Below, piece after piece: positions 8,706 through 54,372 of a stretch of DNA of 55,105 nucleotides. The translations under genes were made by a program, and so were the position numbers. How positions within the stretch are numbered: the stretch's first letter is position 1; each line of letters opens with the position of its first letter. Below the pieces are notes generated by a model. That model did no database searches, was not told the origin of the DNA, and was given only the letters and a program-made list of their open reading frames with translations. This DNA is from an uncultured virus (IMG/VR IMGVR_UViG_3300037851_001367). Its lineage: Duplodnaviria; Heunggongvirae; Uroviricota; Caudoviricetes. The DNA is taken from the IMG/VR virus record IMGVR_UViG_3300037851_001367, one strand, 5' to 3'.

Positions 8706-8936
8706 GTGGCCGGACACGACTGGAAGAAGGTCTCGTTCCAGGGCGAGCTGAAGCCCTTCGTGAAGGCCTTCCTAAAGCACGACTCCGATCTGTCCAAGCT
8801 CCGGGCATGGCACTGCCCGAAGTGCGGGTCGGTGGCCGTGGCCCAAGGCGGGATGAAGCTCAAGGACGCGCGCCGCCACGCGCGGATCTCCTTCAACTGC
8901 GACGAGATGATAGTGGACGCAGTCCACGACTATTGA
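8706..8936 (+). CDS. Small Zn-finger-like protein with VxxVHxx tail
   Basis: HDW...CPKCG...CDEMIVDAVHDY-stop; GTACGGT-N5-GTG. Confidence 0.75.
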   Translation: MAGHDWKKVSFQGELKPFVKAFLKHDSDLSKLRAWHCPKCGSVAVAQGGMKLKDARRHARISFNCDEMIVDAVHDY

Positions 8937-8941
8937 CTTAT

Positions 8942-9012
8942 TCCGGGGTCGTTCAACGGTAGGACGGGTGGCTGTTTACCACTCTATGCGGGTTCGAATC
9001 CTGCCCTCGGAG
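8942..9012 (+). tRNA. tRNA-Asn(GTT)
   Basis: cloverleaf, loop CTGTTTA. Confidence 0.88.
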
Positions 9013-9017
9013 CTTTT

Positions 9018-9089
9018 GACCTACTAGCTGTCTGGTGAAGCGCCCGCCTGTTAAGCGGAAGACGCCAGGTTCGATTCCTGGGTAGGTCG
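9018..9089 (+). tRNA. tRNA-Asn(GTT)
   Basis: cloverleaf, loop CTGTTAA. Confidence 0.85.
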
Positions 9090-9140
9090 CAAAGTTCGTA
9101 TTCCGTCGTAGACTGGCGGGACTCCGCTGTACGCTCGCCC

Positions 9141-9701
9141 GTGATCCACAAGGGCGCCGGGAAGTTCGTCATCCACCACGCCGACGGGCTGGAGGTCCTC
9201 GCCTCCCGCCGCTGGAGCCACATCATCACCGACCCGGACTATGAGAACCAGCCGGGCGTCGACGGATACCTCGCCCAGTGCAGCGGGAATGTCCTCGTCT
9301 TCTGCGACCCGACCAAAAGGCCCTGCGGCCCAAACCCGGACGAGGTGCTCGCCTGGCTGAAGCCGCCGGCCTACAAGAACGTGTCTAGGCGGTGTGCCAA
9401 GATGTTCGAGGAGATCCTCGTCTACCGCGGCAAGGACTCCGTCTTCAACCCGGTCCACTGGTCGTCGATGGTCGGCATTTTCACCGACGGCTTCGTCGAG
9501 AAGCCCCTCCATCCGTACGGCAAACCGCCGTCCCTCATCGAGAAGCTCGTGCTGATGTACACGAAGCCGGGCGACCTCGTCTTCGATCCGTTCTGCGGCT
9601 CCGGCACCGTCGGCGTCGCCTGCCTCAAGCACGGCCGCAAGTTCGTCGGCTGCGAGAACGACCGTAGGTATTTCGAGATGGCCCGTAAGGCGGCGGCATG
9701 A
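9141..9701 (+). CDS. DNA N6-adenine/N4-cytosine methyltransferase (beta-type motif order)
   Basis: TDPDY (variant of DPPY), HPYGKP, FDPFCGSGT. Confidence 0.85.
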   Translation: MIHKGAGKFVIHHADGLEVLASRRWSHIITDPDYENQPGVDGYLAQCSGNVLVFCDPTKRPCGPNPDEVLAWLKPPAYKNVSRRCAKMFEEILVYRGKDSVFNPVHWSSMVGIFTDGFVEKPLHPYGKPPSLIEKLVLMYTKPGDLVFDPFCGSGTVGVACLKHGRKFVGCENDRRYFEMARKAAA

Positions 9702-9886
9702 GCGACGAGAAGGAACCCGAAGAGATCACCGAGGACGACCGGGACCCGGCCAACATCCTCTTCCGCGCGGGCTACCTCCGTAGCCTCGCGAACAAGCTCG
9801 ACGGGGAGGACCGGAAGTTCGTCGTGCGCGCCTCAAGGTCACTCCGGGCGTTCGCGATGACCTTCCGAACCAAGGACGGCCAATGA
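9698..9886 (+). CDS. Hypothetical protein
   Basis: ATGA-coupled to both neighbours. Confidence 0.6.
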   Translation: MSDEKEPEEITEDDRDPANILFRAGYLRSLANKLDGEDRKFVVRASRSLRAFAMTFRTKDGQ

Positions 9887-10281
9887 GCAGCCGCGTCAGC
9901 CCAGTCCAGCAAGAGCTTCACCGGAAGCAGCAGGAGCGCTTCTCCAAGATCGAGGCGGGCCGTCCCTGGTGGACCGGGACCTCGCCGGGCGGCAAGGTCT
10001 ACGAGGTCTTCGGAGCGAAGAAAGGGTTCACCAGCCGCCACTCCGTCGCAGTCGTGAAGGAGAAGCTGACCGAGGTCTGCGGGTGGGCCGAGAAGGAGCT
10101 CGGCCGGTACTACGGCTTCTCGCCCGTCTCGCTGATGGATGACCTGTCGGACGAGGCCATGGCGAAGGACGTCCTGACGGAGATCAGGACCCAGGAGCCT
10201 AAGGAGAGCGAAGAGTTTCTCCTGCTTGTGGCCCAGGCCCTCGTCGACGTCTTCAACGTGATGGTCCTCGACGAGTTTTGA
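9883..10281 (+). CDS. Hypothetical protein
   Basis: ATGA-coupled 132-aa ORF. Confidence 0.65.
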   Translation: MSSRVSPVQQELHRKQQERFSKIEAGRPWWTGTSPGGKVYEVFGAKKGFTSRHSVAVVKEKLTEVCGWAEKELGRYYGFSPVSLMDDLSDEAMAKDVLTEIRTQEPKESEEFLLLVAQALVDVFNVMVLDEF

Positions 10282-10954: not shown

Positions 10955-10961
10955 GCCGCGG

Positions 10962-15751: not shown

Positions 15752-17620
15752 ATGGACGAGCAGAAGAGGATCGAGAACCTCGGCCCGGCCGAGCGCATCA
15801 TCAACGCGCTCCTGGCCTACACCGACCACATGTACCACAACCGCCCGGGCTTCGTCGTTCCGGACGCGCGCCACAACATCGGCGTGCGCTGGGAGTACGC
15901 CGTGCCCGCCGACGAGGAGGGCAAGCGCGTCCTCAACCGCATCGTCGGCAAGGGCCGCAAGGCGACCAAGACGAAGATCGGCGAGATCCGCGCGGACGGC
16001 AAGGTCGTCAGCAACGGCCAGGTCGTCGGCGAGTACCGCGAGGCCGGCATCTTCCCCGAGGTCGCGGCCTGGATGTACCGGCAGGTGGCGGAGGTCTGGA
16101 GGCTCGACAACGAGTTCGCGGCCCGCTGGGCATCGCACGCGTTCAAGCAGGACCACCGTGACCTCAAGGTCGTTCTCGCGGCCTTCATGCTCTGCCAGTC
16201 CCGCAAGGGCGACCCGGTGAAGGAGGGCGACAAGGTCCTCTTCCACGACGAGGACTTCCGCGACGTCGGCGAGGCCATGGCCCTCACCTACGAGGGCAAG
16301 GACTCGAAGAAGGACATGTCGCCGAAGATGCTGCTCCGCATCTACGAGGTGCTCAAGGTCCCGGCCGTCGCCGAGATCAACCGTGAGTTCGGCTTCGGCC
16401 GCTCGGCGCGGAACGCACACCTCGGCCGCTGGGAGAAGGCCGTCCACAAGTGGCTCCAGTTCCGCGAGGAGAACCCCAAGCTCCTGGCGGGCCTGGTGAA
16501 GGCCGGCTTCAAGTCGACCGTCCAGGACCTCGTCCGCATCTCCGGCTACAAGCCGGAGTCGCCGAAGTTCTTCGAAGCCCTGCGCTGGAAGCAGTCGCAG
16601 GCGAAGGACGGCCGTCGCACCATCCTCTCCGTCGAAGTCTCGGCGGCCGAGTCCTGGGGCGACCTGACGGAGGAGCAGATCTGCGAGCGGATCGTGCGCG
16701 ACAAGCCGTCGTGGAAGAAGGCAGCGTCCATGCTGCCCAAGCACCTCGGTGTGACGCGGGCGATCATGACGGCGGCCATCGAGGCGGGCTCGCTCTCCTC
16801 GAAGGACCTCATCATCGCGCTCCCGACCCTCGAAGACCTGGGCTTGCTCAAGGTCCAGGAGGTCAAGGATCGCGTCGACAAGGCGGTCCGCGAGGCGGAG
16901 GACATGCGCGCGGCGAACGTCGCCGCTCGGCTCCGCACGAAGGAGGCCAAGGACAAGGCTCAGGAGGCCGCGGACAACGCGGTGAAGAAGGCAGTCGAGG
17001 AGGTCACCAAGAACCTCCGCGTCTACTTCATGGTCGACATCTCCGGCTCGATGGAGCAGTCCATCGAGGAGGCGAAGCGGCACATCGCGCGGTTCCTCCA
17101 GGCTTTCCCGCCCGATCAGATCCACGTGGCCGTGTTCAACACGTCCGGCCGCGAGGTGAAGATCCCGCACCCGTCCGCCGCCGGGGTCGAAAACGCCTTC
17201 CGCGGCATCCGCGCGGGCGGCGGGACCGACTACGGTTCGGGCGTCCGAGCCCTCCAGCACTTCAAGCCCAAGGAGGACGAGGACGTTCTCTTCTTCTTCG
17301 TGGGTGACGAGGAGGCGAACGGGTTCGATCAGGCAGTTCGGCAGTCGGGACTCAACCCGATGGCGTTCGGCCTCGTGAAGATCCGCAACTCGCCGCACGT
17401 CTGCGTTCAGGGTTCGGCTGCAGCCCTCGGGATTCCGTGCTTCCTGGTCGACGAGGCAACCTTCGCCGACCCGTACGCGATCCCGAGGACGATCCGCAAC
17501 CTCATCGCGGCCACGCCGGTCAACAAGATCCAGGGGCGCGCGCCCGCCGCACCGCGGCTGACGCTCGTCGACACGATCCTCAAGACCGACCTCCTGAAGA
17601 AGCCGGCCTGGGCGACGTGA
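15752..17620 (+). CDS. vWA-domain protein with a long helical N-terminus; Ro60/TROVE-like by architecture
   Basis: C-terminal MIDAS VDISGSM, GGTDY, VGDEE. The vWA call is firm; the TROVE call is inferred from size, domain layout and the nearby RNA array. Confidence 0.75.
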   Translation: MDEQKRIENLGPAERIINALLAYTDHMYHNRPGFVVPDARHNIGVRWEYAVPADEEGKRVLNRIVGKGRKATKTKIGEIRADGKVVSNGQVVGEYREAGIFPEVAAWMYRQVAEVWRLDNEFAARWASHAFKQDHRDLKVVLAAFMLCQSRKGDPVKEGDKVLFHDEDFRDVGEAMALTYEGKDSKKDMSPKMLLRIYEVLKVPAVAEINREFGFGRSARNAHLGRWEKAVHKWLQFREENPKLLAGLVKAGFKSTVQDLVRISGYKPESPKFFEALRWKQSQAKDGRRTILSVEVSAAESWGDLTEEQICERIVRDKPSWKKAASMLPKHLGVTRAIMTAAIEAGSLSSKDLIIALPTLEDLGLLKVQEVKDRVDKAVREAEDMRAANVAARLRTKEAKDKAQEAADNAVKKAVEEVTKNLRVYFMVDISGSMEQSIEEAKRHIARFLQAFPPDQIHVAVFNTSGREVKIPHPSAAGVENAFRGIRAGGGTDYGSGVRALQHFKPKEDEDVLFFFVGDEEANGFDQAVRQSGLNPMAFGLVKIRNSPHVCVQGSAAALGIPCFLVDEATFADPYAIPRTIRNLIAATPVNKIQGRAPAAPRLTLVDTILKTDLLKKPAWAT

Positions 17621-17632
17621 ACAGCTGAGGAC

Positions 17633-17672
17633 CCGTCCGTCCACAGGCCTTCCACAGGCTGTGGACGGACGG
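17633..17672 (+). terminator. Strong hairpin after the vWA gene
   Basis: perfect 14-bp stem CCGTCCGTCCACAG/CTGTGGACGGACGG with no U-tract. Confidence 0.5.
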
Positions 17673-17708
17673 AAGTCCGAGGCCGCCATCCGTAACCGGC
17701 GATCCTCG

Positions 17709-17900
17709 ATGAAGCTGAGCGTCACGATCGGCAAGACCAAGTACGAGCTGGAGGAGACCAGCACTCCCCACTTCCTCAAGCTGACCAAGAGCGGGCCTGG
17801 AGAGCAGACGTTCTTCATCCCGCGCTCCCTGGTCCTCGACTACGTCGCCAAGAAGGGAAGCCCGCGGCTGGCGGACATGGTCGCCAAGGAGCTGGGCTGA
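17709..17900 (+). CDS. Small hypothetical protein
   Basis: MKLSVTIG...; TGATG coupling to the next gene. Confidence 0.65.
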   Translation: MKLSVTIGKTKYELEETSTPHFLKLTKSGPGEQTFFIPRSLVLDYVAKKGSPRLADMVAKELG

Positions 17901-18904
17901 TGGGCTGGAGGGATCATCTGCAGAAGGAGGAAGAGACCGTCGTCCTTCCGTGGTTCGCCGGGCGGGAAATCCGCTCCGCCGACCGCGTCTTCAACATCCA
18001 GGGCAAGCTCCCGCGAGAGCCGGGCTGGAACACCTTCTCCGTCAAGGGAAGGACGGCAAGGCTGCTCGAAGGAGAGGAGGCCAAGCTCCGGGCGGAGCAG
18101 AACGTCCTTCCGCCCGGCTCGCTTCAGTCCGAAGTCTCGGGCTACCTCGTCGGCGACCGGTTTATCCGTGACGACGCGGTGGTCGACCCCGACCCCGCCA
18201 GGATTGCCGAGCAGTCCGAGCAGATCTGGTTTGTCGAGGAGGGCCTCGACAGGTTTACGCGCGTGGAGGCAGGACGCGTGCACGAGGGCGGCCCGCTCAT
18301 CTTCGCCGGCATGGCCTTCCCGCTGGGCCCCGAGGACGAAGTCACCCGGGCCTTTCAGGACCGCAAGCCTTCAGTCTCCGACATCAAGGGGGTCGTTCCA
18401 GCCCTCGACGCCGCCTTCCGCATGGAGTCTTGGCGCCGGTCGGAGACCGAGCGCCTCCGAGCGGAGGCCGAAGAGCGAAGGCGGCGGGAGGAGGAGCAGC
18501 GCCGCAGGGAGGAGCAGCGGCAGGAGCTCGTCCGACAGCTCGGCGACGGTGCCGGCCGGCGGGCCATGGCCGCAGTCGACTTTGACGCCGCCGCCAGGGC
18601 CGCGCTCCAGGTCGGCGGGGCCGAGTTCCTCGACGCGCGGCAGTCCCGCAACCGTAACGAAATGGTCGTCACCTTCCGGTTCCACAACCGAAGGTTCGAG
18701 TGCACTTGCGACCGCTTCACCCTTCAGATCATCGACGCAGGCATCTGCCTCGTCAACCACGCCACCGGCGAGAAGGGTGACGCCTACTTCACTCTGGAGT
18801 CCTTCCCGGCGGTCATCGCCCAGGCGGAGCGCGAGAGAAGGCTCGTCGTCTGGAGGCACGTCGACGGTGTCGACGACCGGGACCGGGAGGACTGGGACGA
18901 TTGA
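17900..18904 (+). CDS. Hypothetical protein with coiled coil and putative divergent E2 (UBC-like) C-terminal domain
   Basis: IIDAGICL...FTLESFPAVI resembles the E2 G-x-ICL...T-L/I active-site region; sits in an operon with JAB, Ubl and E1. Confidence 0.55.
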   Translation: MGWRDHLQKEEETVVLPWFAGREIRSADRVFNIQGKLPREPGWNTFSVKGRTARLLEGEEAKLRAEQNVLPPGSLQSEVSGYLVGDRFIRDDAVVDPDPARIAEQSEQIWFVEEGLDRFTRVEAGRVHEGGPLIFAGMAFPLGPEDEVTRAFQDRKPSVSDIKGVVPALDAAFRMESWRRSETERLRAEAEERRRREEEQRRREEQRQELVRQLGDGAGRRAMAAVDFDAAARAALQVGGAEFLDARQSRNRNEMVVTFRFHNRRFECTCDRFTLQIIDAGICLVNHATGEKGDAYFTLESFPAVIAQAERERRLVVWRHVDGVDDRDREDWDD

Positions 18905-19152
18905 AGCACTCCTGGATCCGGGACCCTCCCGAGGAGTGGAAGGCCCTGAAGGACAAGCAGGCCGAACGGTTCCCGGGATGGGTCGAGATCTTCTTCGAGT
19001 GCTCGGCCTGCGGGTGCGTCGGCCACGTGATGTACAAGGACGGCCCGGTGCCGGACGCTCCGGCGGAGGCACAGAACATCTTGAGCAAGCAGGTGGTCGA
19101 CGTCGACGGCGACTGTAACGAGCAGATCGTGGACAATGTTCATGCCTTCTAA
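18901..19152 (+). CDS. Small Zn-finger-like protein with VxxVHxx tail
   Basis: HSW...CSACG...CNEQIVDNVHAF-stop. Confidence 0.7.
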   Translation: MKHSWIRDPPEEWKALKDKQAERFPGWVEIFFECSACGCVGHVMYKDGPVPDAPAEAQNILSKQVVDVDGDCNEQIVDNVHAF

Positions 19153-19384
19153 GCGACCGAAGAAAGCCTCCGCCGGAAAGCCCCTCACCATGACGGAGGA
19201 GGTTGCGCGCCAGCGCGACGCCGACGCCAGGAGGGGACTCCGCGCCCTGTCCCAGGTTGAGACTGTCAAGCGGATCCTGACCGAGGGCCTCAAATACCAT
19301 GAGCACGACGGCCACAACATGCCGAAGAGGGTCGCCCGTGAGGCGCTGGAGGCCCTCGGTGTAAAGCGTGAGGACCAACCCTAG
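19136..19384 (+). CDS. Hypothetical protein
   Basis: 82-aa ORF in the operon. Confidence 0.6.
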   Translation: MFMPSKRPKKASAGKPLTMTEEVARQRDADARRGLRALSQVETVKRILTEGLKYHEHDGHNMPKRVAREALEALGVKREDQP

Positions 19385-19394
19385 GAGGGGACCC

Positions 19395-19985
19395 GTGGCG
19401 AGACTCAGGAGCAAGGCCCGACGGCAGCAGCGCAAGCGCAAGGACCCCTACGCGGACGACAAGTTCGTCGTGGTGAAGTCCCAGACCGGGCGCCTCAAGC
19501 CCGGCATCTACAAGCGCCGGGTGTCCGTCGACGGCGACATCGCCTTCGTTCATCCGCGCGAGGGGTGCGCCAAGGCGGACATGGTTCCGGCCTCGCACGT
19601 CTTCGACGTCAAGGAGAAGGCCGACGCCTTCTTCACCGCCGAGGGAGAGCTTCAGTGGGTCGTCATGAAGGACGACGATGACGACGAGATGCCCGAGGTC
19701 TTCGAGGCGCGCGTCCGCAGCTACGTCAGCAAGCGGTCCTATGACCGCTGGTCGCGCGAGGTTCAGGTCATCGCCCGCACGGACGGCAAGCCCGTCTCGC
19801 AGCGCTGGGGGACACGGGCTTTCAGCACGGAGCGTGAGGCCCTCCGTTACATGCTCAAGAGGGTGGGCGACGGTATCAAGGAGGCCGACGCCAAGATTGA
19901 ACAACAGCAGGCCCGCAAGAAGGGCTTCCTCAAGATCCAGCGCCGCATCAAGGAGCTCGGAATCAAGCGCGGGCTCGCGGACTGA
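19395..19985 (+). CDS. Hypothetical protein
   Basis: GGAGG Shine-Dalgarno before GTG 19395; basic termini, C-terminal coiled coil. Confidence 0.7.
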   Translation: MARLRSKARRQQRKRKDPYADDKFVVVKSQTGRLKPGIYKRRVSVDGDIAFVHPREGCAKADMVPASHVFDVKEKADAFFTAEGELQWVVMKDDDDDEMPEVFEARVRSYVSKRSYDRWSREVQVIARTDGKPVSQRWGTRAFSTEREALRYMLKRVGDGIKEADAKIEQQQARKKGFLKIQRRIKELGIKRGLAD

Positions 19986-20002
19986 CTGCCCGGAAAGAGA
20001 GC

Positions 20003-20587
20003 GTGGTTATGATGGAGGCTGGAGTCGTCATCGCGGGAGGCAAGCCGGTATTCTGGCACCTCCCTAAGGGTAGGACCTCCGGGTCGCTGCCGGACAGCCG
20101 CGACCTCTGGGACGTGCTGTGGGAGCACCGCGGGACGCTCGACGGCTTCGCGCATTCTCACCCTGGTTCCGGAGTCCCTGGCCCTTCGCACACGGACGTG
20201 ACTACGTTCCTCGCCGTAGAGCGCGCCCTTGGGCGGCGGCTCAGGTGGTGGATCACGAGCCGTGACCGGACGGTGCTCGTTCGCGACGACGGGCACGGAC
20301 GTCCTTTTGAGGGGAAGTACACGGTCTTTGAGGTCAAGCTGGAAAACGAGCCTGACTGGATCTGGAAGCTGCGCGAGCACTCCTACGTGCCCGAGCCCCG
20401 CGTCCCGGACGGGATCGACGAGGTCGACGTGGACGGGAAGGTCGACGCGAAGGGTGTTCGTTTTGTCGGAAAGGCCCGGCGCCAGCCCGACGGGACCTGG
20501 AGAGCGCTCGCCGACGTCGGCGGCGCGCTCTGCCTGGTCGAGTGCACGGTGACCGCTTGGCCCGTGCAGTGTAAATCGTCGTCATAG
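20003..20587 (+). CDS. JAB/MPN (JAMM) metallo-isopeptidase
   Basis: N-terminal E (MEAG) plus HSHP-x6-PS-x2-D (HSHPGSGVPGPSHTD). Confidence 0.88.
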   Translation: MVMMEAGVVIAGGKPVFWHLPKGRTSGSLPDSRDLWDVLWEHRGTLDGFAHSHPGSGVPGPSHTDVTTFLAVERALGRRLRWWITSRDRTVLVRDDGHGRPFEGKYTVFEVKLENEPDWIWKLREHSYVPEPRVPDGIDEVDVDGKVDAKGVRFVGKARRQPDGTWRALADVGGALCLVECTVTAWPVQCKSSS

Positions 20588-20608
20588 AGACGTAGAGAGG
20601 AGACTGAG

Positions 20609-20878
20609 ATGGTCGACATGGTAATTGCCGCGAACCAGGCGCGGGTCAACGTAACCTGGGCGGGGAAGAACGGCGACCTGCCGGATCCGGTCTCCTTCGA
20701 CGCGACGGACGGCGACGTGAAGCAGTGGATCACGGAGGCCGTCCGTGGCGGGAACATTCCGGGCATCGACGCCGATCCGGCGGCGAACTTCGGCGACTTC
20801 GTCGTCGAGCGCTTCAACGCGCACCCGGAGGTCCCGTACAACCGGATCGTCATCCGGCCGAAGACCCCGTTCGGCTGA
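20609..20878 (+). CDS. Putative ubiquitin-like (beta-grasp) protein
   Basis: 89 aa, beta-beta-alpha-like pattern, ends in a beta strand followed by RPKTPFG (terminal Gly); lies between JAB and E1. Confidence 0.65.
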   Translation: MVDMVIAANQARVNVTWAGKNGDLPDPVSFDATDGDVKQWITEAVRGGNIPGIDADPAANFGDFVVERFNAHPEVPYNRIVIRPKTPFG

Positions 20879-21168
20879 TGTCCCGCAACGTCCGTTGGAC
20901 CTTGCAGGCCCTGAACCGGGCCCGCAAGTCCGGCGACCAGGCTGAGGTCGGGCGGCTAAACTCGATACTGGAGGCCGCGCAGGCTCGGTGCTCACACGCC
21001 GCGCCTCGCGGCAGCCAGAGGCTGAAGGAGGACTCCAAGAATGGCAAGTACCAAAAGAACGGCGTCCTCCACTGGTGCCTCCTCTGCGGCAAAACGACGG
21101 GGTACGACCCGCCCGTTGTCGAAGGCGGCGAAGGAGCTGGCCGTGATGATGGACGCAATCAAGCGTGA
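20878..21168 (+). CDS. Hypothetical protein with CxH...CxxC
   Basis: TGATG-coupled to the Ubl gene. Confidence 0.6.
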   Translation: MSRNVRWTLQALNRARKSGDQAEVGRLNSILEAAQARCSHAAPRGSQRLKEDSKNGKYQKNGVLHWCLLCGKTTGYDPPVVEGGEGAGRDDGRNQA

Positions 21169-21358
21169 TCACGAGTCGTTCTTCGGAATGGGCAAGTTCG
21201 CCTGCAAGAGGAAGCTCTCGAACGGCGCGGTCGTACGGGTCTCCATCACGATGCCGAAGCTGCCCGCCAAGAGCGCGCAGGAGCAGGCCGTCGAGGACAT
21301 CAACGCGGGGCGAATCCCGCACAACAAGCACACGTGTCCGGGCTGTCCGATTCACTGA
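21143..21358 (+). CDS. Small hypothetical protein
   Basis: AAGGAG Shine-Dalgarno; C-terminal H..HTCPGC. Confidence 0.55.
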   Translation: MMMDAIKRDHESFFGMGKFACKRKLSNGAVVRVSITMPKLPAKSAQEQAVEDINAGRIPHNKHTCPGCPIH

Positions 21359-21370
21359 AAGGAGGGCGTC

Positions 21371-21943
21371 ATGAAGATTGTCATCATCGGCGTGGGCGCC
21401 CTCGGCTCGCACCTCGTCCCGCTCCTGCGGAACGTGAAGGCGGACGTCAAGGTCGTCGACTTCGACCGCGTCGAGCAGAAGAACGTCATGTCCCAGTTCC
21501 ACGCCAAGGCGTCGGTCGGGACGCTCAAGGTCCAGGGCCTGAAGCAGAACCTCCAGTTCCTCTTCGGCATGAAGATCGAGACGAACTCGAACAAGCTCGT
21601 GGCGGAGAACTGCGACCAGGTGCTCTCGGGCGCCGACCTCGTGGTCGACTGCCTCGACAACGGCGCGGCCCGCAGGCTCGTCCAGGGCTTCGTCCGCAAG
21701 AACGGCGTGGCCTGCGTCCACGGAGCCCTCGCTCCCGACGGCGCGTTCGGCCAGGTCCGCTGGGACGAGGGATTCGTCATCGACGACGAGTCGGCGGACG
21801 CCAAGGCCACGTGCGAGGACGGCGAGCACCTGCCGTTCATCTCGCTGGTCTCCTCGATCCTCGCGAAGTCCGTCCAGGAGTTCGTCGAGGGCGGCAAGAA
21901 GCGCGGGTGGATGGTCCACCCGGGCGGAGTCTCGCAAGTGTAA
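21371..21943 (+). CDS. ThiF/E1-family adenylyltransferase
   Basis: GVGALGS, DFDRVEQKN..SQ, VDCLDN; candidate catalytic Cys in ATCED. Confidence 0.9.
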   Translation: MKIVIIGVGALGSHLVPLLRNVKADVKVVDFDRVEQKNVMSQFHAKASVGTLKVQGLKQNLQFLFGMKIETNSNKLVAENCDQVLSGADLVVDCLDNGAARRLVQGFVRKNGVACVHGALAPDGAFGQVRWDEGFVIDDESADAKATCEDGEHLPFISLVSSILAKSVQEFVEGGKKRGWMVHPGGVSQV

Positions 21944-22656: not shown

Positions 22657-22777
22657 GAGAGGGCCACCAGGCGAACGTCCACACGCATAGCTCATTGGTA
22701 GAGCGCTTCCCTGATAAGGAAGAGGTTGGGACTTCGAAACTCCCTGCACTCAACAGACGCCGTCACTCGGCCCTCTC
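22657..22777 (+). ncRNA. tRNA-mimic unit 6 (type B, tRNA-Ile(GAT)-like arms)
   Basis: GAGAGGGCC/GGCCCTCTC terminal stem; D-arm, CTGATAA loop and T-like arm inside the module. Confidence 0.8.
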
Positions 22778-24517: not shown

Positions 24518-24952
24518 ATGGACCCGAACCAGGTCTCCACCCATCTTCGCCACATCGCCGCCAAGATCGACCGCTCCGTTCAGCCGGACCGGCGGGCCGT
24601 GATGCGCGAGCTGCGGACCCTGGTGGCGTCGATGGAGCTGGCGTCGCAGAGCATGACGAGCCAGTGCTACACGGTCGGCATCTACGGCCAGCCCGGCTGC
24701 TCGTTCAAGCACGACGACGTCGACATGACCTCGATGATGGAGGCGCCCTTCCGCGAGGCCGGCGCGTCTCACTTCAGCTGGGTCAAGGGCGGCTGCCAGA
24801 TGATGGTCCCGCAGGAGGCCCTTCCGGCGGTCCTCCAGGCGCTGAAGGCGGCCCAGGAGGGCAGCTACGGCGACGACTACAAGAGCTTCTACGACGGCTT
24901 CCAGCACGAGTACACGCTCGACCCGACCGGTGCTCGCGTCATCGATCAGTGA
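24518..24952 (+). CDS. Hypothetical protein
   Basis: MDPNQVSTHLRHIAAKI..., strong GC3 bias. Confidence 0.7.
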   Translation: MDPNQVSTHLRHIAAKIDRSVQPDRRAVMRELRTLVASMELASQSMTSQCYTVGIYGQPGCSFKHDDVDMTSMMEAPFREAGASHFSWVKGGCQMMVPQEALPAVLQALKAAQEGSYGDDYKSFYDGFQHEYTLDPTGARVIDQ

Positions 24953-25218
24953 CGGTGCACGAGGTCCACGACGACCTCGTTACAGGACGGGACGCTCTCC
25001 TCTGACCCGTAGACGCGAAACTCCGCTCCCGGGACGGTGTAGCCCCGCATTGCCGTCTCCGGCCCGAGCGCGCGGTCCCACTCTCTTTTGACCGGCCACT
25101 GGAACTCCGTCCCGCACTTGCGGCACGTCCGGTGGACCCATCCGTTCTCGCCTCTCGGCCTGCGCCTTGGGCCGAAGACGTGTCCCTTCAGTCGATCCGG
25201 GACGTCGTAGACGCTCAC
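24946..25218 (-). CDS. Small Zn-finger-like protein with VxxVHxx tail
   Basis: GTAACCT-N5-GTG; HVF...CRKCG...CNEVVVDLVHRH-stop. Confidence 0.7.
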   Translation of the reverse strand: MSVYDVPDRLKGHVFGPRRRPRGENGWVHRTCRKCGTEFQWPVKREWDRALGPETAMRGYTVPGAEFRVYGSEESVPSCNEVVVDLVHRH

Positions 25219-25252: not shown

Positions 25253-25498
25253 ATGGGCCAGCGCTACCGTGTGGTGCTTGAGGTCCTCTCGAACTTCGCG
25301 GGGGAGCCTGAGGCTGACGTCGAGCAGAAGACCATAAAGAGCTACCTGGAGAGCGTGGCGGGGGTCGGGGCCATTTCGGTCCTGTCCGTCGAACCGGCCC
25401 CGGAGCCTGCGGTCGTTCCGGAGGCGTTTGCGGCGACCGAGCCTCCGACGAAGACGGTGCGGAAGCCCCGCTTTCCAAAGGGAGTCAAGAAGGTGTAA
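25253..25498 (+). CDS. Hypothetical protein
   Basis: MGQRYRVVLEV... Confidence 0.6.
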   Translation: MGQRYRVVLEVLSNFAGEPEADVEQKTIKSYLESVAGVGAISVLSVEPAPEPAVVPEAFAATEPPTKTVRKPRFPKGVKKV

Positions 25499-25506: not shown

Positions 25507-25881
25507 ATGAACGAAGCCCGCCCCGAAGCCTTCAGCGCCCTCAACGAGCTCGCCGACCACGTCTACGACACGGCGCGGTCCAAGGGCTTCCACGACGAGC
25601 CGGTTCCGCTCTCCATCTCGACGGCGAACCTGCACTCCGAGGTCTCGGAGATGTGGGAGGCGTTCCGCAACAACAGCCTCCACTCGTTTTGCGACAAGTC
25701 CGAGAAGATGAAGGCGATCGGGCTCAACCCGCTCACCAACCTGGAGGAGGAGCTCGCCGACATCGTCATTCGCGCCCTCGACACGGCGCGGGAGAACGGC
25801 ATCGACATCGCGAACGCCGTCCGCGTCAAGGACGCCTACAACAAGTCGCGCCCGCACAAGAACGGTGGCAAGGCCGCGTGA
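25507..25881 (+). CDS. MazG-like NTP pyrophosphohydrolase
   Basis: HSEVSEMWEA...EEELADIVIR..D...K..YN..R all-alpha NTP-PPase motif. Confidence 0.85.
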   Translation: MNEARPEAFSALNELADHVYDTARSKGFHDEPVPLSISTANLHSEVSEMWEAFRNNSLHSFCDKSEKMKAIGLNPLTNLEEELADIVIRALDTARENGIDIANAVRVKDAYNKSRPHKNGGKAA

Positions 25882-26237
25882 GCGAAGAGGACGCCGCGCT
25901 CCTGCGTGAGCGAGTCCGCGCGGCCCTTCAGACTAGCACGGGCAAGACCCTCACCCAGGCCCTCAAGGACGCCGTCCCGTACGGCGATCACGACCTTCAG
26001 CTCACGTCGGTTGACGACCCGGCGACGCTCAAGATTGCCTGCGGGGTCCGCTGCCGAAAGTGCGGCTGGTACTTCCGCATCCACGTCGACTTGCTGGTCG
26101 GCGCCCGGAAGGCCGCCGACTCGGCAGTCCTGGAGGGAACGTTCTACCAGCTTCTCCGCCGGTTCGTGACGGAAGTGGACCAGGACTGCAGGACGGCACG
26201 GCTCATGGCCGTCGTCACGGACGTGCACGACCTCTGA
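25878..26237 (+). CDS. Zn-finger-like protein with VxxVHxx tail
   Basis: GTGA overlap; HDL...CRKCG...VVTDVHDL-stop. Confidence 0.7.
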   Translation: MSEEDAALLRERVRAALQTSTGKTLTQALKDAVPYGDHDLQLTSVDDPATLKIACGVRCRKCGWYFRIHVDLLVGARKAADSAVLEGTFYQLLRRFVTEVDQDCRTARLMAVVTDVHDL

Positions 26238-31574: not shown

Positions 31575-32081
31575 ATGGGCCACGCCGAGTCGTACGTCAA
31601 CAGGTTCTACCCTGACCAGAGCGTTGCGCTCATTCAGCGCTACTGGGTACACCCGCAGGTCCTCGTCGGCGGCAGCGTCAACGACGCGGAGGACTGGCAG
31701 CACCTTCAGCGCGACTTCGGCATCCAGTCGGTCCTCAACGTCGAGACCGAGCACTCCGACGAGGGGAAGGGCATCGCCCGCCTCTCCGAGTGCCGCGTTC
31801 CCGACGTCGGCGAGCCGATTCCGCGCGGGATTGTCCGCCAGGCTGTCAGCTTCGCCAAGCTCGCCGCCGGGTTCGGCCCCATTTACGTCCACTGTCAGAT
31901 GGGAGGGTCGCGCAGTCCAGCCTTCGCCTACGCCATCCTTCGCTGGGTGCACGAGATGACGCCCCAACAGGCCTTCGACGCCCTCCGCGCTTCGCGCGAC
32001 TGGGCTCCCGGCCTGCCGTACGGGGATCACCACTACCACAAGGTCTACCTGGCCTCGGTCGACGAGGCCCTCAAGTCCTAG
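31575..32081 (+). CDS. Dual-specificity protein phosphatase
   Basis: VHCQMGGSRS (HCx5R) motif. Confidence 0.88.
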   Translation: MGHAESYVNRFYPDQSVALIQRYWVHPQVLVGGSVNDAEDWQHLQRDFGIQSVLNVETEHSDEGKGIARLSECRVPDVGEPIPRGIVRQAVSFAKLAAGFGPIYVHCQMGGSRSPAFAYAILRWVHEMTPQQAFDALRASRDWAPGLPYGDHHYHKVYLASVDEALKS

Positions 32082-32434
32082 ATCCTCATCGACTTCCACG
32101 GCTTGTCGGGCGACGGAATGCCAAACGTCTCGCCTCCGGCGGCCTTCTGGAACGCTTGGTCGGCCTCATAGGCGAGCGCCTGCATCTCCTTCGCCTTCTT
32201 GCGGTCCGCGGCGTCCCTCCACGACTTGGCGGCCTGAATGGCGGCCTTCACGGCCTCCTTGAGCGCCGCGGCGTCGGTTCCCGCCTCCTGGATCGCCTTG
32301 CGGGCTGCCGCCTCCGCGGCCTCCGCCGCGCGGACGACCGCCTTCTTCATCACCTCGTTCGGGACGTAGGGGTCTCCGAACGACTTGTATGTGGGCTTGT
32401 TCGCTACGCGGGCGGCAATCCTGAGGAGGTCCAC
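32078..32434 (-). CDS. Ala-rich helical hypothetical protein
   Basis: MDLLRIAARVA... Confidence 0.7.
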   Translation of the reverse strand: MDLLRIAARVANKPTYKSFGDPYVPNEVMKKAVVRAAEAAEAAARKAIQEAGTDAAALKEAVKAAIQAAKSWRDAADRKKAKEMQALAYEADQAFQKAAGGETFGIPSPDKPWKSMRI

Positions 32435-33436: not shown

Positions 33437-33671
33437 CAGGCAGCGCCCTCCGCCGTCGAAGAAGAACACGAAGCGCTGGTGCCGCGGCAAGGTCGGCGTC
33501 GAGCACAAGCCCGAGTGCCGCGTCTACCGGGACGTGAAGATGGCGTACGCCGGACTGAAGGGCGACTTCCTCAAGGGATGGCGAGTCCTCGTCTGCACCG
33601 AGTGCGGCAAGGAGCTCGCGACGTACTACCCATTCGGCAAGAGCGAACCGCCCGCCTGGGTGACCTGCTAG
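33375..33671 (+). CDS. Small basic Zn-binding hypothetical protein
   Basis: WCRGK..H...CTECGK. Confidence 0.65.
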   Translation: MSEWKQGAAKRRDERNTRGPSRQRPPPSKKNTKRWCRGKVGVEHKPECRVYRDVKMAYAGLKGDFLKGWRVLVCTECGKELATYYPFGKSEPPAWVTC

Positions 33672-34150
33672 AGGTCGTGGACGTCCTCGACCGTGTCCAG
33701 ATAGTCGAGGTGCTCCAGGGTGAAGTCGTCGATCTCCATCGACGCCGACATGCCCTCTACGGACACCGGCTTGCGGTCGAAGAGGTCGACCGCGTCCCTC
33801 ACCGTCTGGCCCTTCCTCGCCGTCATGACCACGCTGCCCACGAACGTCCAGACGGCCTTCTCGCCGACCACCTGGTGGAAGGACCGGGCGAAGATGAGCA
33901 CCGTCCCTCCGTGCTCCTGAAGGTTGGCGATGGTCGCGATGGCCCTCGTGATCATCCTCGTCACCGACTCGGCGGTGAACCCGGCGATCTCGATCTCGGG
34001 CAGGACGACGTTCTTGCCGGCCGTCGTCTTCCACGTGTGGCCGTCGTCGTCCACGTAGTACCATTCCTCGTCTCCCGACGGCCGGTACGCCGGCAGCTCG
34101 CCGTCCCGGACCCTGAAGGCGAGCACGTCGACGAGGTACTTCCTGCTCAT
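33668..34150 (-). CDS. Hypothetical protein with VxxVHxx tail
   Basis: GTAAGGT-N5-ATG; ends TVEDVHDL-stop. Confidence 0.75.
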   Translation of the reverse strand: MSRKYLVDVLAFRVRDGELPAYRPSGDEEWYYVDDDGHTWKTTAGKNVVLPEIEIAGFTAESVTRMITRAIATIANLQEHGGTVLIFARSFHQVVGEKAVWTFVGSVVMTARKGQTVRDAVDLFDRKPVSVEGMSASMEIDDFTLEHLDYLDTVEDVHDL

Positions 34151-39536: not shown

Positions 39537-39818
39537 CTATAGGTCATGCACGTCGTCGACGAGCTTTTCCAGCTGCAGCCGTGCGACGTGGCTGCGAATC
39601 CTCCACCATTCCCTGGCGGAATGCAGCAGCTCCCCGAGCATCAAAAGGGACCAAATTCCGCACGCGGCGATAACGGCCGTCGGGAACACCCACCGGGGCA
39701 GCCACCAGACGAGTGCCGCTAGGGCGATCGTCTTCAGCAGGCTCTTCGACGACTGTTCCAACGTCGGGCGCACCGACTTCCAGGCCTGCAGTGAGGGCCT
39801 CTCGTCGGATACGTACAC
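39537..39818 (-). CDS. Small membrane protein with VxxVHxx tail
   Basis: two hydrophobic helices; ends LVDDVHDL-stop; start uncertain. Confidence 0.6.
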   Translation of the reverse strand: MYVSDERPSLQAWKSVRPTLEQSSKSLLKTIALAALVWWLPRWVFPTAVIAACGIWSLLMLGELLHSAREWWRIRSHVARLQLEKLVDDVHDL

Positions 39819-41462: not shown

Positions 41463-41957
41463 GTGATCCTAGAGGAATACGTCTGCAACAGCTACTACGG
41501 GCACCGCACGGTGCGGTGGCAGGTCCACCCGCTCATCGTCATCGGCGGCCTCATCAACGGTCCGGACGACGCCCGTCACCTCCAGGACAACCTCGGAATC
41601 CGCTCCGTCATCAACGTCGCCACTGACGACACGGACGAGGGCAAGGGCATCAAGCTGCTCTCCGAGCTCCGCGTCCCTGACGACGGGACGCCGCTCCCGC
41701 CGGAGATGGTCAGGCACGCCGTCGCCTTCGCCAAGATGTTCGTGGGGTTCGGGCCCGTCTACGTTCATTGCGCGCTCGGCAACTCGCGGAGCCCGGCCTT
41801 CGCCTACGCCATCCTGCGCTGGGTCTTCCAGCAGTCCCGCGACGAGGCCCTCCGGGCCATTCGCGAAGGGAAGCCCGGAATCACCGAGCAGTACGGCCAG
41901 AACTGGGTCCAGGCGAACTACCTCACGTCGGTGGAGTCCGCGCTCAACCTTCCCTAG
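41463..41957 (+). CDS. Dual-specificity protein phosphatase (paralog of 31575)
   Basis: VHCALGNSRS; shares SPAFAYAILRWV. Confidence 0.88.
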   Translation: MILEEYVCNSYYGHRTVRWQVHPLIVIGGLINGPDDARHLQDNLGIRSVINVATDDTDEGKGIKLLSELRVPDDGTPLPPEMVRHAVAFAKMFVGFGPVYVHCALGNSRSPAFAYAILRWVFQQSRDEALRAIREGKPGITEQYGQNWVQANYLTSVESALNLP

Positions 41958-42962: not shown

Positions 42963-43178
42963 ATGACGAAGGAGGACGTGACTCCGCACGACTGGGAGAA
43001 GGTCGAGGTCAACGACGTCCTCGGCCCGCCCGTCATGTTTCAATGGTGGATGTGCAAGCGCTGCGGGGCCGCATCACGCTCGGCCAAGGACGAGCCCCTG
43101 ACCGAAGTCGACGTCCTGATGGGTGGACTGAGCGTCGACTGCGACGAACAGCTAGTCGAGGAAGTCCACCAGCACTGA
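42963..43178 (+). CDS. Small Zn-finger-like protein with VxxVHxx tail
   Basis: HDW...CKRCG...CDEQLVEEVHQH-stop. Confidence 0.72.
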   Translation: MTKEDVTPHDWEKVEVNDVLGPPVMFQWWMCKRCGAASRSAKDEPLTEVDVLMGGLSVDCDEQLVEEVHQH

Positions 43179-44238: not shown

Positions 44239-44994
44239 ATGAGGAAGCTGGACTTTTCCCGACAGCTCGTTCTTCCACAGGTTGGCGAGGCCGGACAGGC
44301 GCGGCTGGAAGCCTCCAAGGTCCTCGTCGTCGGGGCGGGAGGCACCGGCTCTCCCGCTATCATGTACCTCGCGTCAGCCGGCGTCGGCCGCGTCGACGTC
44401 TGCGACCCGGACGCCGTCGAACCGTCCAACCTCCACCGCCAGATCATCCACGGCAAGGTTGGGGAGATGAAGTCCGTCTCCGCCAAGCAGTGGATTCGCG
44501 ACCGCGGGTCATGGTGCGAGTGGTCGCTTCAGAGGCTCACGGACGTCCAGGCCTTCAAGGCCGCGTCCGAGGTCCCGAGCGTCGATTACGACGTCGTCCT
44601 TGACTGCACGGATCGGTGGAGCGCGCACAACGACATCGTCTCCTCCGGGGTCCGCGCCGGCAAGACGGTCATCCACGGCTCCGTGGGCGGGCTCCTCGGC
44701 CGCGTCGTCGGCTTCGGTCCGGGCACTCCGTGCTGGCTCTGCCTGCATCCGGAAAAGCCTGCGGGCCTCAAGGAGGTCGTCCCGGGGACGTTAGGGCCTG
44801 TTTGTGGCGTCGTAGGATCCGCAATGGCGATGGAGGCGATCCGCGTCCTTCTCGGGCTCCCTCCTGCCATCGCAGGCCACATGCTGACCTTCGACGCGTC
44901 CACGATGTCCTTCGCGAAGTTTGAGCTCTCCAAGCTCGAAGGATGTCCCGGGTGCCGTGACGCCCGCAATGAAGCCCCATCCGGTCCTCAATAG
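44239..44994 (+). CDS. MoeB/ThiF-family adenylyltransferase
   Basis: SRQL.LPQVG..GQ, GAGGTG, SNLHRQ, DCTD and two CxxC Zn motifs. Confidence 0.9.
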   Translation: MRKLDFSRQLVLPQVGEAGQARLEASKVLVVGAGGTGSPAIMYLASAGVGRVDVCDPDAVEPSNLHRQIIHGKVGEMKSVSAKQWIRDRGSWCEWSLQRLTDVQAFKAASEVPSVDYDVVLDCTDRWSAHNDIVSSGVRAGKTVIHGSVGGLLGRVVGFGPGTPCWLCLHPEKPAGLKEVVPGTLGPVCGVVGSAMAMEAIRVLLGLPPAIAGHMLTFDASTMSFAKFELSKLEGCPGCRDARNEAPSGPQ

Positions 44995-45272: not shown

Positions 45273-45539
45273 GTGGGCAACGACTCCAACAACTCCGAAG
45301 AATGGGACGACGAGTTCTTCCTCGGCTATTTCAGCCTCCACGCCGAGACCGAGCTCGCCCTGTTCCACCGCAAGCATGTCGAACGGCTTCTGAAGCTCGC
45401 CGGCAAGGACGTCCCACCCCGCATGAGGGAGTGGCTCTCGGTGCACTCTGAAACGGCGGACCCGCTGATCGCGGAAGCCCGGAAGAGGCTCGCCGAAGCT
45501 GAGGCCGAGCGCGCCGTAGATTACGTGCACGACCTATGA
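45273..45539 (+). CDS. Hypothetical protein with VxxVHxx tail
   Basis: ends AVDYVHDL-stop; ATGA-coupled to the next gene. Confidence 0.7.
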   Translation: MGNDSNNSEEWDDEFFLGYFSLHAETELALFHRKHVERLLKLAGKDVPPRMREWLSVHSETADPLIAEARKRLAEAEAERAVDYVHDL

Positions 45540-48674: not shown

Positions 48675-48761
48675 GGGGGCGTGGCGAAACTGGCAGCCGC
48701 TACCGCCGCTCAGCGACGGGAGGGACTCTGTCCCATGGTGGTTCGAACCCACCCGTTCCCC
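48675..48761 (+). tRNA. tRNA-Leu-like gene with aberrant anticodon arm (CAG- or TCA-centred)
   Basis: Leu-type D-loop, variable arm and T-arm; anticodon region CCGCCGCTCAGCGACGG. Confidence 0.6.
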
Positions 48762-50191: not shown

Positions 50192-50485
50192 CTATATCTC
50201 GTGAACCGCGTTGACGTTATGGACGTCCGCGGCCTCCGCCATCTTCTCAAGCCCCCGGATGAGTTCCCGGGCGTCCTCCGGCCTCATCCGGGCCATATCT
50301 CGCATGATCCGCTCACCGGGCCTGTGCCTATATTGCTCGACGGCAACTTCGCCGTCATCCGCGACCACGCGGACGTTCCACTCCACACCCTCCTCGTCCT
50401 TGACGGTGAAGGGGAGCTTGTATACGGCGTAATCCACGTCGTCGTCACCGTCCATGTGCGTCGGATCCTCGTGCACAGGGTTCAT
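50192..50485 (-). CDS. Hypothetical protein with VxxVHxx tail
   Basis: ATGA-coupled; ends NVNAVHEI-stop. Confidence 0.7.
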   Translation of the reverse strand: MNPVHEDPTHMDGDDDVDYAVYKLPFTVKDEEGVEWNVRVVADDGEVAVEQYRHRPGERIMRDMARMRPEDARELIRGLEKMAEAADVHNVNAVHEI

Positions 50486-52295: not shown

Positions 52296-52299
52296 CATT

Positions 52300-52386
52300 G
52301 GAAGGTGAGCCCACGAGGAGTGGGGGCCCGTTGGAAGCGGGTTCGGGCGGCGAAAGCTGCCAGGGGTTCGAGTCCTCCTCCTTCCG
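52300..52386 (+). tRNA. tRNA-Ser(GGA)
   Basis: loop TTGGAAG, long variable arm, G73. Confidence 0.82.
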
Positions 52387-52390
52387 CTAC

Positions 52391-52477
52391 GGAGGGTTAG
52401 CCTAACGGTAAGGCACCGGCTTTGAACACCGGCGTGACGTGATGAGCGTCTTGGGGGTTCGAGTCCCTCACCCTCCG
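52391..52477 (+). tRNA. tRNA-Ser(TGA)
   Basis: loop TTTGAAC, long variable arm, G73. Confidence 0.88.
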
Positions 52478-52509
52478 CAAGTCCGAGTTGCCTGAGCGTA
52501 GTGTTCTCC

Positions 52510-53148
52510 GTGAACAAGGCGCTGAAGGCGGCGAAAAAGGTCCTCCCGGTCTACCGCCAGACCGTCGACGGATGGGCCCAGGGCATCAGGGAGGCCGACG
52601 AGCAGCAGAAGATCTCCTGCAAGCGCGGCTGCCATCACTGCTGCTACAACCTCGTGAAGGCCACCCTGGCCGAGGGCGCGGCCATCGCCGTACACCTCGT
52701 CGAGAGGGGCGAGTTCGAGAAGTATCGACCGCAGCTGGAGAAGACCGCCAAGCTCGCCGACTCGTTCGTCGACGCGGAGGGCGAGGACGGCTCCTTCCGC
52801 TATCTCGCGACGAAGACGCCGTGCGCGTTCCTCAAGGACGGCGAGTGCTCCATTTACGACCTGCGGCCGATGTCCTGCCGGACGTACTACGTCGCGACGA
52901 GCCCGGACAACTGCTCGCCGGACCGCCCGGGCGCTGAGGTCGGCGTCGTGGACGCCCGCGCCGCAGCGGGTATCTTCATCAACAACCTCATCCAGGCTAC
53001 GCACCCGGCCATCCCCGCCTTCATCGGGCCGTTCCCGTCCGTCGTCCTCGCCGGCAAGGAGATCATCGAGCGGAGCCCCGGCGCGTTCAAGCGCTGGGCG
53101 CAGAAGTCCGAGCTCTTCACAGCCAACGTGGACGTCGTCGCGCCGTGA
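52510..53148 (+). CDS. YkgJ-family cysteine-cluster (Fe-S/Zn) protein
   Basis: CKRGCHHCC ... CAFL...CSIY..RP..CR. Confidence 0.88.
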   Translation: MNKALKAAKKVLPVYRQTVDGWAQGIREADEQQKISCKRGCHHCCYNLVKATLAEGAAIAVHLVERGEFEKYRPQLEKTAKLADSFVDAEGEDGSFRYLATKTPCAFLKDGECSIYDLRPMSCRTYYVATSPDNCSPDRPGAEVGVVDARAAAGIFINNLIQATHPAIPAFIGPFPSVVLAGKEIIERSPGAFKRWAQKSELFTANVDVVAP

Positions 53149-53390
53149 CCCTCGCGGTCGGCTCCACCGCCGACAACGGCCCCGTCGTCATCAGGTTCCA
53201 ACTGTCGCCCGTCGAGCCAGGGTGGTTGCGGAGAGGGCCTAGCGTGCGCTCCACGGGAGCGCTCTTTTATGCAGACTATCTGGCGGACCCGGCCTCGACC
53301 CACTCCGAGCGGCGGGGAGGCAGCCGTCGCGACAAGCGGAAGGCCAAGGCGGCCCGTCGCGCTCGTAAAAAGCAACGGTCACGCCCCTGA
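53145..53390 (+). CDS. Small basic hypothetical protein
   Basis: GTGA-coupled; stop codon overlaps tRNA-Thr. Confidence 0.45.
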   Translation: MTLAVGSTADNGPVVIRFQLSPVEPGWLRRGPSVRSTGALFYADYLADPASTHSERRGGSRRDKRKAKAARRARKKQRSRP

Positions 53391-53454
53391 AGCATTGACG
53401 GCGATGCACCCGGTTTGTACCCGGGCGAAGCGGGTCCGACTCCCGCCGGGGGCT
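53383..53454 (+). tRNA. tRNA-Thr(TGT)
   Basis: loop TTTGTAC; variant T-loop TCCGACT. Confidence 0.82.
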
Positions 53455-53481
53455 CCGCGACTTCCGTACGTAGCGTTCAGG

Positions 53482-54372
53482 ATGCAGTCCGTAACGCCAC
53501 CCCGCGCGCCCGGCTCAGCCGCCGGCCTTCACTTCACAGATAGCCTCCCCATGTCCCTCGGCCAGGCTCGCGAGGACGTCATCGTCCGGGAGCTCCTGCG
53601 CGGGAACGTGCCGGACTTCATGCGCCAGCTCGTGGAGGTGGACGCCTCAGGGAAGGACGCGACCGGCAACGAGCGCAAGCTCAAGCTCTACGTCTCGCCC
53701 GACTATCTGTCCGTCGGCGACGACGAGGACTTCGTCCGCGTGCCCCTCAACCCGCTCTCGGCCCAGCTCGTCGCCGACGAGTTCGGGTGCGTGCTGCCGA
53801 CCAGGAAGATCGTCGACCTCGTCTGGAAGGCCTCCACGCTGCGGCTGAGCCCGGACCCCATCCCGCCGGACGCCCAGATGTCGACGACCAAGCGGTTCGT
53901 CGAGCACAACCGAAAGGTGGAGGCAGTTCGCCGCAAGAAGTTCGAAGAGCTCGACCTCGTCCTGGGCGCCCTCGTCGGCGGCCACAAGAAGGACGTCGTC
54001 ATCACGAACAAGCTGCTTGACCAGCTCGGCAAGATCCTCAAGAAGGTCGCCATCTACGGCTGGCACAGGCCGAACGGCGAGGCCATCCAGGGCCTCAACA
54101 CGTCGAGCCACGACGACCAGTACGCCGACTATAGCCACGGAATCCGCCTCGTCGCCGAGCGCTGCGAGCTCGAAGGGTCGCTCATCGACATTCGCCTCGT
54201 CATGGCCGATCCGGTCCTATGGCCGCTCCTGTCAGACGAGGGCCAGATGAAGATCGTCGCGTACCCCAAGCGGGTCTTCTGCGACCGGTGCGAACGAACG
54301 TACCTCTCGACCGACGGCCACCCCGAAGAGAAGTGCAAGCTCAACACGGTCTCGGACGTCCACGACCTGTGA
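53482..54372 (+). CDS. Hypothetical protein with appended Zn-motif/VxxVHxx tail
   Basis: GTAGCGT-N5-ATG; GHKKDVV, AIYGWH, DYSHGIRLV; tail CDRC..H...CKLNTVSDVHDL-stop. Confidence 0.8.
   Translation: MQSVTPPRAPGSAAGLHFTDSLPMSLGQAREDVIVRELLRGNVPDFMRQLVEVDASGKDATGNERKLKLYVSPDYLSVGDDEDFVRVPLNPLSAQLVADEFGCVLPTRKIVDLVWKASTLRLSPDPIPPDAQMSTTKRFVEHNRKVEAVRRKKFEELDLVLGALVGGHKKDVVITNKLLDQLGKILKKVAIYGWHRPNGEAIQGLNTSSHDDQYADYSHGIRLVAERCELEGSLIDIRLVMADPVLWPLLSDEGQMKIVAYPKRVFCDRCERTYLSTDGHPEEKCKLNTVSDVHDL

Follow-up and report, generated by a model that had tools for sequence, protein, structure and literature searches.

A 55,105-nucleotide stretch of DNA from an uncultured virus (IMG/VR record IMGVR_UViG_3300037851_001367), hereafter the window, is 65% guanine plus cytosine (GC) and holds 82 genes as called by a purpose-written, simple codon-based caller, ten of which end in the same pattern, V-x-x-V-H-x-x, in exact register to the stop codon. 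An earlier note, made from the letters alone, had named these ten proteins and proposed that their common end is a C-terminal address tag. A six-frame translation of the window recovers exactly ten stop-terminated segments with the pattern, all of them within called genes and with the same ten heptapeptides, as against 0.016 expected by chance (binomial p about 1e-25). The register is sharp, the six-frame translation giving 1, 0, 10, 0, 1, 1, 0 and 1 segments at successive distances from the stop; inside the window's proteins V..VH occurs twice in 12,942 residues, and in 200 trials with random internal 10-mers the best three-residue pattern reached only 2-4 occurrences. The observation of the note is thus borne out.

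Genes are named here, as in the earlier note, by their start on the plus strand and by their stop end on the minus strand. Three carriers, 8706 (8706..8936, plus strand; 76 residues, tail VDAVHDY, tag at 8913-8936), 18901 (18901..19152, plus; 83 residues, VDNVHAF, 19129-19152) and 42963 (42963..43178, plus; 71 residues, VEEVHQH, 43155-43178), form one family of small H-x-W...CxxC...C zinc-finger proteins (8706 against 42963, E 6e-5), and two CxxC proteins have its cysteine pattern in common, namely 24946 (24946..25218, minus; 90 residues, or 102 from a start at 25254, VDLVHRH, 24946-24969) and 25878 (25878..26237, plus; 119 residues, VTDVHDL, 26214-26237); the description of all ten as otherwise dissimilar must be amended to that extent. 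The others are 33668 (33668..34150, minus; 160 residues, VEDVHDL, 33668-33691), the membrane protein 39537 (39537..39818, minus; about 93 residues, VDDVHDL, 39537-39560), whose tail lies C-terminal to a hydrophobic stretch with basic residues alongside, 45273 (45273..45539, plus; 88 residues, VDYVHDL, 45516-45539), 50192 (50192..50485, minus; 97 residues, VNAVHEI, 50192-50215) and 53482 (53482..54372, plus; 296 residues, or 273 from 53551, with a zinc knuckle and the tail VSDVHDL, 54349-54372). The last residue thus varies among L, H, Y, F and I. Neither Pfam nor PHROGs names any of the ten above cut-off, and a homologue search with 42963 alone returned only 42963 itself.

The motif genes lie on both strands and end in three different stop codons, their Val and His codons match the usage of the genome, and no DNA is conserved 3' of the stop. 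The constraint acts on the peptide and not on the DNA, as the note had argued from strand and codon differences.

Protein similarity and gene order place the window within a clade of tailed phages of about 0.4 Mb. Searches with VxDVHDL patterns gave 13 and 0 stretches in viral contigs, with no credible carrier among them, and 18 stretches in metagenome contigs, 12 of which continue into Trp, the phage-like carriers being at loci L033 and L036 with a probable third at L034. The Met form of the motif, seen beside His forms in L036, returned 43 IMG/VR loci when used as a query, many of them on phage contigs of 0.2-0.44 Mb. Five whole relatives were compared (G004-G008, four of the five complete with terminal repeats), and at E<1e-10 matches were found for 19 of the 82 window proteins in G004, 17 in G007, 12 in G006 and 5 in G005, with a gene order resembling that of G007. 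The clade has a core of 128 genes, and its major head protein is phrog_2522 (E 2e-46).

A tag profile built on the last 12 residues of proteins, with an internal rate of 0.0005, marks 11-26% of the genes of these relatives (126/662 in G004, 171/648 in G005, 105/573 in G006, 90/572 in G007 and 35/313 in G008) and 9/82 in the window, the tenth carrier, 50192, being the weakest match at 3.2 bits. The distant relatives Tunturi_5 (0/351), LR745208 (0/699) and Rctr197k (0/235) have none in 1,285 genes; the records G001 (0/103) and G002 (0/83) are fragments and were left out of this tag-free set. The tag is therefore clade-wide, and it is undescribed as far as the literature was searched, no description of the motif having been found in a search of incomplete coverage.

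Compared across the clade, V..VH is one dialect of a wider motif, [VI]xx[VI][MH]xS, here called VMES. The window's tails follow the family pattern of [VI] at both -7 and -4, His or Met at -3, acidic residues further upstream and a fixed distance to the stop. When a profile is trained on Met tails only and positions -7, -4, -3, -2 and -1 are disregarded, the window's ten still score higher than the rest of its genes (p 8e-4). Proline makes up 0-0.7% of residues across -10 to -1, and hydrophobic residues 93, 97 and 80% at -7, -4 and -3, so that the tag looks like a proline-free amphipathic helix with these three positions on one face. Run against 1.84 billion proteins, a profile of the small zinc-finger carriers matches 291; the 150 listed include 139 small ones, of which 104 are strictly tagged (35 His, 69 Met), a proportion that is partly circular since the profile includes the tail. 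Local spellings also occur: a repeat-protein family at G008:160844-170011 ends in A-[FY]-x-V-T-[NE]-S, with Thr at -3, and the record G031 combines [IM] at -7 with His.

The choice between His and Met follows the genome. G019 (274 kb, 66% GC) shares the window's spelling (VDEVHDL, VDAVHAL, VDAVHDL), and by pattern count it has 0 Met and 13 His tails, as G031 has 0 and 18, with controls at 0 in both. Together the tails of the window and G019 are His in 25/25 cases and Ser-ended in 0/25, as against His in 36/391 and Ser-ended in 239/391 in G004-G008 (p 9e-24), and 20 of the 36 His tails found within these Met genomes keep the final Ser (p 1e-6). Orthologues change spelling with the genome in which they reside: VDYVHDL of 45273 corresponds to VRAIMEI in G005, VDNVHAF of 18901 to IRQVNET in the syntenic G007 gene, and a DHH phosphoesterase ends in VEEVHAL in G019 and ILDVMKE in G007 and is untagged in five others. 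An artefact of GC content was rejected as the cause of the dialects, as VMES is the spelling both in G010, where GC near the locus is 68%, and in L052 (63%). The tag comes in heritable dialects, and since a single reader co-evolving with its ligands is expected to make the spelling of orthologues follow the genome, the coupled, genome-wide change at two positions would fit one co-evolving pocket.

The tag sits on lineage-specific accessory proteins. It is found on 439 of the 1,464 genes confined, by homology, to a single one of the four complete genomes and on 6 of 528 core genes; the carriers have a median length of about 90 residues, and a Pfam scan of 193 of the 198 carriers of at least 95 residues gave matches for nine (four ankyrin, RuvC, DHHA1, two zinc modules and collagen). 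CxxC is missing from 69% of small carriers, and Cys stands at -13 to -10 in 18% of carriers versus 7%. Membrane segments are predicted in 12/536 tagged and 98/1,862 untagged proteins, basic residues being commoner on the tail side in nine of the 12. Copies of the tag in small proteins are terminal in 536 cases and internal in 12 (about 98% terminal), and these 12 strong internal matches, in 167,949 small-protein positions, compare with 0 in 78,960 positions of tag-free genomes. One internal copy is conserved, near the N-terminus of the stand-alone BRCT copy of a split NAD ligase, in 4/4 genomes (G004:33018, G006:223096, G007:350787, G008:150338), which argues that a free carboxyl end is preferred and not required.

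The 296-residue start of 53482 is backed by orthologues of 288-296 residues; our caller and the database both start it at 53551. The protein belongs to a large cellular family, with 6,555 homologues, in which the motifs HKKD, IYGWH and DYSHG are invariant and in which signal-like N-termini or fusions to peptidoglycan-binding or T9SS domains are frequent. No match was found in Pfam, NCBIfam or the folds of the PDB, a fold search with the 53551 form giving nothing at E<=0.001. Among the 120 homologues listed, a zinc knuckle and tail are present in 14 clade members and in 0 of 106 from outside the clade, which answers the earlier question whether cellular homologues lack the tail. The tail is indeed appended, as had been suspected, the unit being a zinc knuckle and helix of about 35 residues rather than seven residues alone. 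In a structure model of the 53551 form the confidence (predicted local distance difference test, pLDDT) is 93.9 for the whole model and drops to 64 and 49 in its final blocks, where the tail is predicted to be unpacked.

Carrier bodies also include pieces of the major capsid protein. With a profile of five full-length capsid proteins, and with tags trimmed off, small proteins resembling capsid fragments are tagged in 14/19 cases as compared to 512/2,218 for other small proteins (p 5e-6; reversed control 0), and tag-free genomes have 1/956 such proteins. Low-complexity repeats excepted, the capsid protein is the one among 138 core families whose pieces recur in small proteins, and its fragments are enriched five-fold or more among tag carriers. 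The window's 33668 counts, weakly, as such a fragment, its residues ~12-83 bearing a faint likeness to residues 55-129 of the capsid protein of the clade (hidden Markov model E 0.01 among 2,237 small proteins with 0 reversed hits; hhalign probability 23%, E 9e-4). Untagged capsid-protein fragments occur at G005:73397, G005:77462 and W01:122430, the last in the cultured phage Tunturi_5, an isolate in which capsid decoys could be tested.

A separate motif, L-R-I-A-x-R-V-A and variants, lies within the first 30 residues of 52 proteins, none of which is tagged (0/52, p 4e-5). It is present in the window at 32078-32434 (minus strand), on 4-15 genes each in G004-G008, on 4 in G019 and on 5 in G001, and may be a capsid-targeting signal, a better candidate for packaging than the C-terminal tag.

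The window's 44 tRNA genes, all on the plus strand, span 6876-53456 and include a tRNA-Sec at 48675; three tagged minus-strand genes overlap or begin within tRNA genes. With Rfam, partial tRNAs come up in addition at 22685 and 23121 and nothing but tRNAs is matched, on which ground an RNA element was rejected as the source of the motif. A phage EF-Tu (12625-13788, plus) is 61-84% identical to copies in three relatives and 52-60% identical, among the matches listed, to bacterial EF-Tu at 80 loci across many phyla; EF-Tu is reported to be a component of the capsid-sensing Avs7 complex (PMC13581612). An operon at 15752-21943 (plus) encodes a vWA-like protein, a 334-residue protein of no assigned function, JAB-like and ubiquitin-like proteins (both by eye) and a ThiF/E1 enzyme, and a second MoeB-like gene lies at 44239. 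The operon was considered as the reader of the tag and rejected, for while it is kept in G004, G006 and G007 it is not in the tagged G005, and it is present in the tag-free Rctr197k. Two further genes, 31575-32081 and 41463-41957, are paralogues, 52% identical and phosphatase-like by eye.

A candidate reader is a clade-specific AAA+ ATPase with the classic clade fold and 68 homologues. An orthologue is present in 4/4 complete tagged genomes, at 53-61% identity, as well as in G019 and G031, and in 0/3 tag-free genomes, W01 and W02 giving generic matches only and Rctr197k none; used as a query, it finds 28 loci. Its gene lies between tail sheath-like and tube-like genes, and its N-terminus resembles the separate N-terminal motif. 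Other core genes include the actin-like volactin (PF25216, E 7e-72; G007:189792 and orthologues) and clamp-loader subunits, near whose genes a 379-residue protein, G007:275201, is beta clamp-like by eye. In the ESM Atlas, one conserved carrier and one core candidate each gave a first match to no named family.

Taken together, these observations make it probable that the tag is a ligand read by one protein partner. Of the address-tag proposals in the earlier note, that of docking on a shared partner fits best. As to what docking achieves, we tentatively favour, at somewhat less than an even chance, a role as the docking helix of a bait or adaptor, whose partner remodels, degrades or sequesters what the carrier body brings. 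The short amphipathic helix, with its hydrophobic residues at -7 and -4 and His or Met at -3, would dock in one pocket of a shared partner on the cytoplasmic side. The carrier bodies, small lineage-specific binding modules such as zinc fingers, ankyrin repeats, capsid pieces and the ligase BRCT copy, would bind targets, plausibly host sensors or other host proteins, which the helix would deliver to the partner. This partner would most likely be a protein-remodelling or protein-degrading machine, and joint drift of pocket and tags would yield the VMES and VHDL dialects. Both the single partner and the adaptor role are what we infer; identifying the partner with an unfoldase or protease, be it the AAA+ of the clade or a Clp-type machine of the host, is a guess. 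Host sensors of capsid protein do exist (PMC13581612). In its boldest form the bait-adaptor reading would describe a targeted-degradation or sequestration platform run by a megaphage, in which at least 100 fast-evolving baits, among them tiled capsid copies catching host capsid sensors, plug by their helix into a phage-encoded machine, lineage-private dialects matching library to reader; as a whole this is unlikely.

Several observations weigh against the bait-adaptor reading or its AAA+ version. The ATPase has its presence pattern in common with 70 clade-specific core genes; its pore loop is atypical, being short and in many members without an aromatic residue, unlike the canonical loop; and its sites show no excess of residues shared by the His lineages (7 versus 1, 5 and 4). 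The dialects rest on few independent lineages, kin share labels, and the AAA tree, made from 25 of the 28 loci (three omitted as near-duplicates or a fragment), lacks resolution at its base. Plain enzymes among the carriers (RuvC-like, DHH and 53482) gain and lose the tag between genomes, and the 14 clade members of the 53482 family have the strict motif in 8, a degenerate one in 4 and a truncated one in 2, so the tag is not indispensable there. No more than 14 of the 526 small carriers are capsid fragments, 5 of the 19 such fragments have no tag, and 33668, the example from the window, is a weak one.

Much of the same evidence bears on other functions. A degron, by which a host or phage protease, directly or via an adaptor, would shorten the life of early accessory proteins and the dialects would track the host protease, would account for the terminal register of about 98% of copies, the accessory bias and the gain of tags by ordinary enzymes, and would be compatible with membrane carriers. 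The conserved internal copies weaken the note's degradation option in its form of a degron read by its carboxylate, notably the BRCT copy in 4/4 genomes; degrons of the ssrA/ClpX, Tsp and FtsH types call for a free C-terminus whose final residues are fixed, and here, in addition, the last residue is variable, specificity lies at -7, -4 and -3 on a helix face, unlike in ssrA-type tails, and short-lived decoys would be of little use, which together leave a degron unlikely. Docking without degradation on a phage-built scaffold, be it volactin, the clamp-like protein or another uncharacterised core protein, would find candidates among the core volactin and clamp-loader genes and the 70 clade-specific core genes, and the clamp-binding tails of T4 offer a precedent. 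Volactin is, however, also present in the tag-free W02 (53%), and the replication core proteins are untagged, given the scarcity of tags among core genes; a localisation tag of this kind is slightly less likely than a degron. Packaging or ejection, in which the tag would load proteins into the prohead for injection as does the T4 capsid targeting sequence or an encapsulin cargo peptide, recalls the T4 internal proteins, which are diverse, defence-related and alike only in their targeting sequence (PMC3012670), and would agree with the frequent export of 53482 homologues in cells and with an ATPase gene set between tail sheath-like and tube-like genes. It is nevertheless improbable, for 90-171 different cargoes per complete genome would have to be accommodated, predicted membrane proteins including 39537 are among them, carriers cluster apart from structural genes, and a separate N-terminal motif, mutually exclusive with the tag, is available; the note's packaging option loses ground on the membrane carriers and on this motif.

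It is also conceivable that no shared reader exists, the tag being the structural end of a recombining zinc-finger module or a DNA-level signal such as the ribosome-binding site of the next gene or part of a mobile cassette. The excess of Cys at -13 to -10, the arrival of the 53482 tag together with a zinc knuckle and an excess of TCA at the Ser codon all point in this direction. Yet most small carriers lack CxxC, synonymous codons vary, and the genome-wide switch between His and Met takes three base changes per gene, leaving this explanation highly improbable. An origin in a ribosome-binding site or cassette was rejected outright, on the varied codons, the lack of conserved downstream DNA and the constancy of the motif before near, distant and convergent neighbouring genes alike.

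Among known systems, the tag works most like a viral substrate-adaptor library or the T4 capsid targeting sequence, and it departs from each in those defining features that were open to testing. The T4 sequence is N-terminal and is cleaved by the prohead protease, and it marks a handful of proteins, whereas the tag is C-terminal, probably helical and present on 90-171 proteins per complete genome, membrane proteins included; Glu at -2 is missing from 9/10 window tails. What makes T4 comparable is that its diverse internal proteins have only a short terminal signal in common, which one partner reads (PMC3012670). Poxvirus ANK/F-box (PRANC) adaptors (PMC9414399, among others) have the architecture proposed for the carriers, in that they combine a variable body, including ankyrin repeats, with a constant C-terminal element that docks on a degradation machine; they differ in using a eukaryotic SCF ligase and an F-box domain where the clade would use a two-turn helix in a bacterial setting, and no F-box or PRANC domain was matched by Pfam in the 193 carriers of at least 95 residues or in the ten window proteins. 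SPO1 Gp53 offers a phage host-takeover protein that docks, in the manner of a ClpCP adaptor, on an AAA+ machine and alters degradation (PMC6873191), but it is a single protein and not a genome-wide library sharing a short tag. That short peptides can bring unrelated proteins to one pocket is familiar from the sliding-clamp-binding C-terminal tails of T4 gp43, gp55 and gp33 and from the SspB/ClpX docking tails; these have another consensus, few clients and core functions, as compared to the accessory proteins and lineage dialects seen here.

Between a tenth and a quarter of the genes of these giant phages bear the tag, and since hardly any of the tagged ones have a known domain, identification of one partner would provide a common entry to hundreds of uncharacterised proteins. 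The dialects supply a built-in control of specificity, in that the true reader of G019 should favour VHDL and that of G004 VMES. If the bait-adaptor reading is correct, the system would supply short, orthogonal tags for docking or degradation, and it would represent a counterpart in bacterial viruses of the viral F-box adaptor libraries and a new counter-defence strategy.

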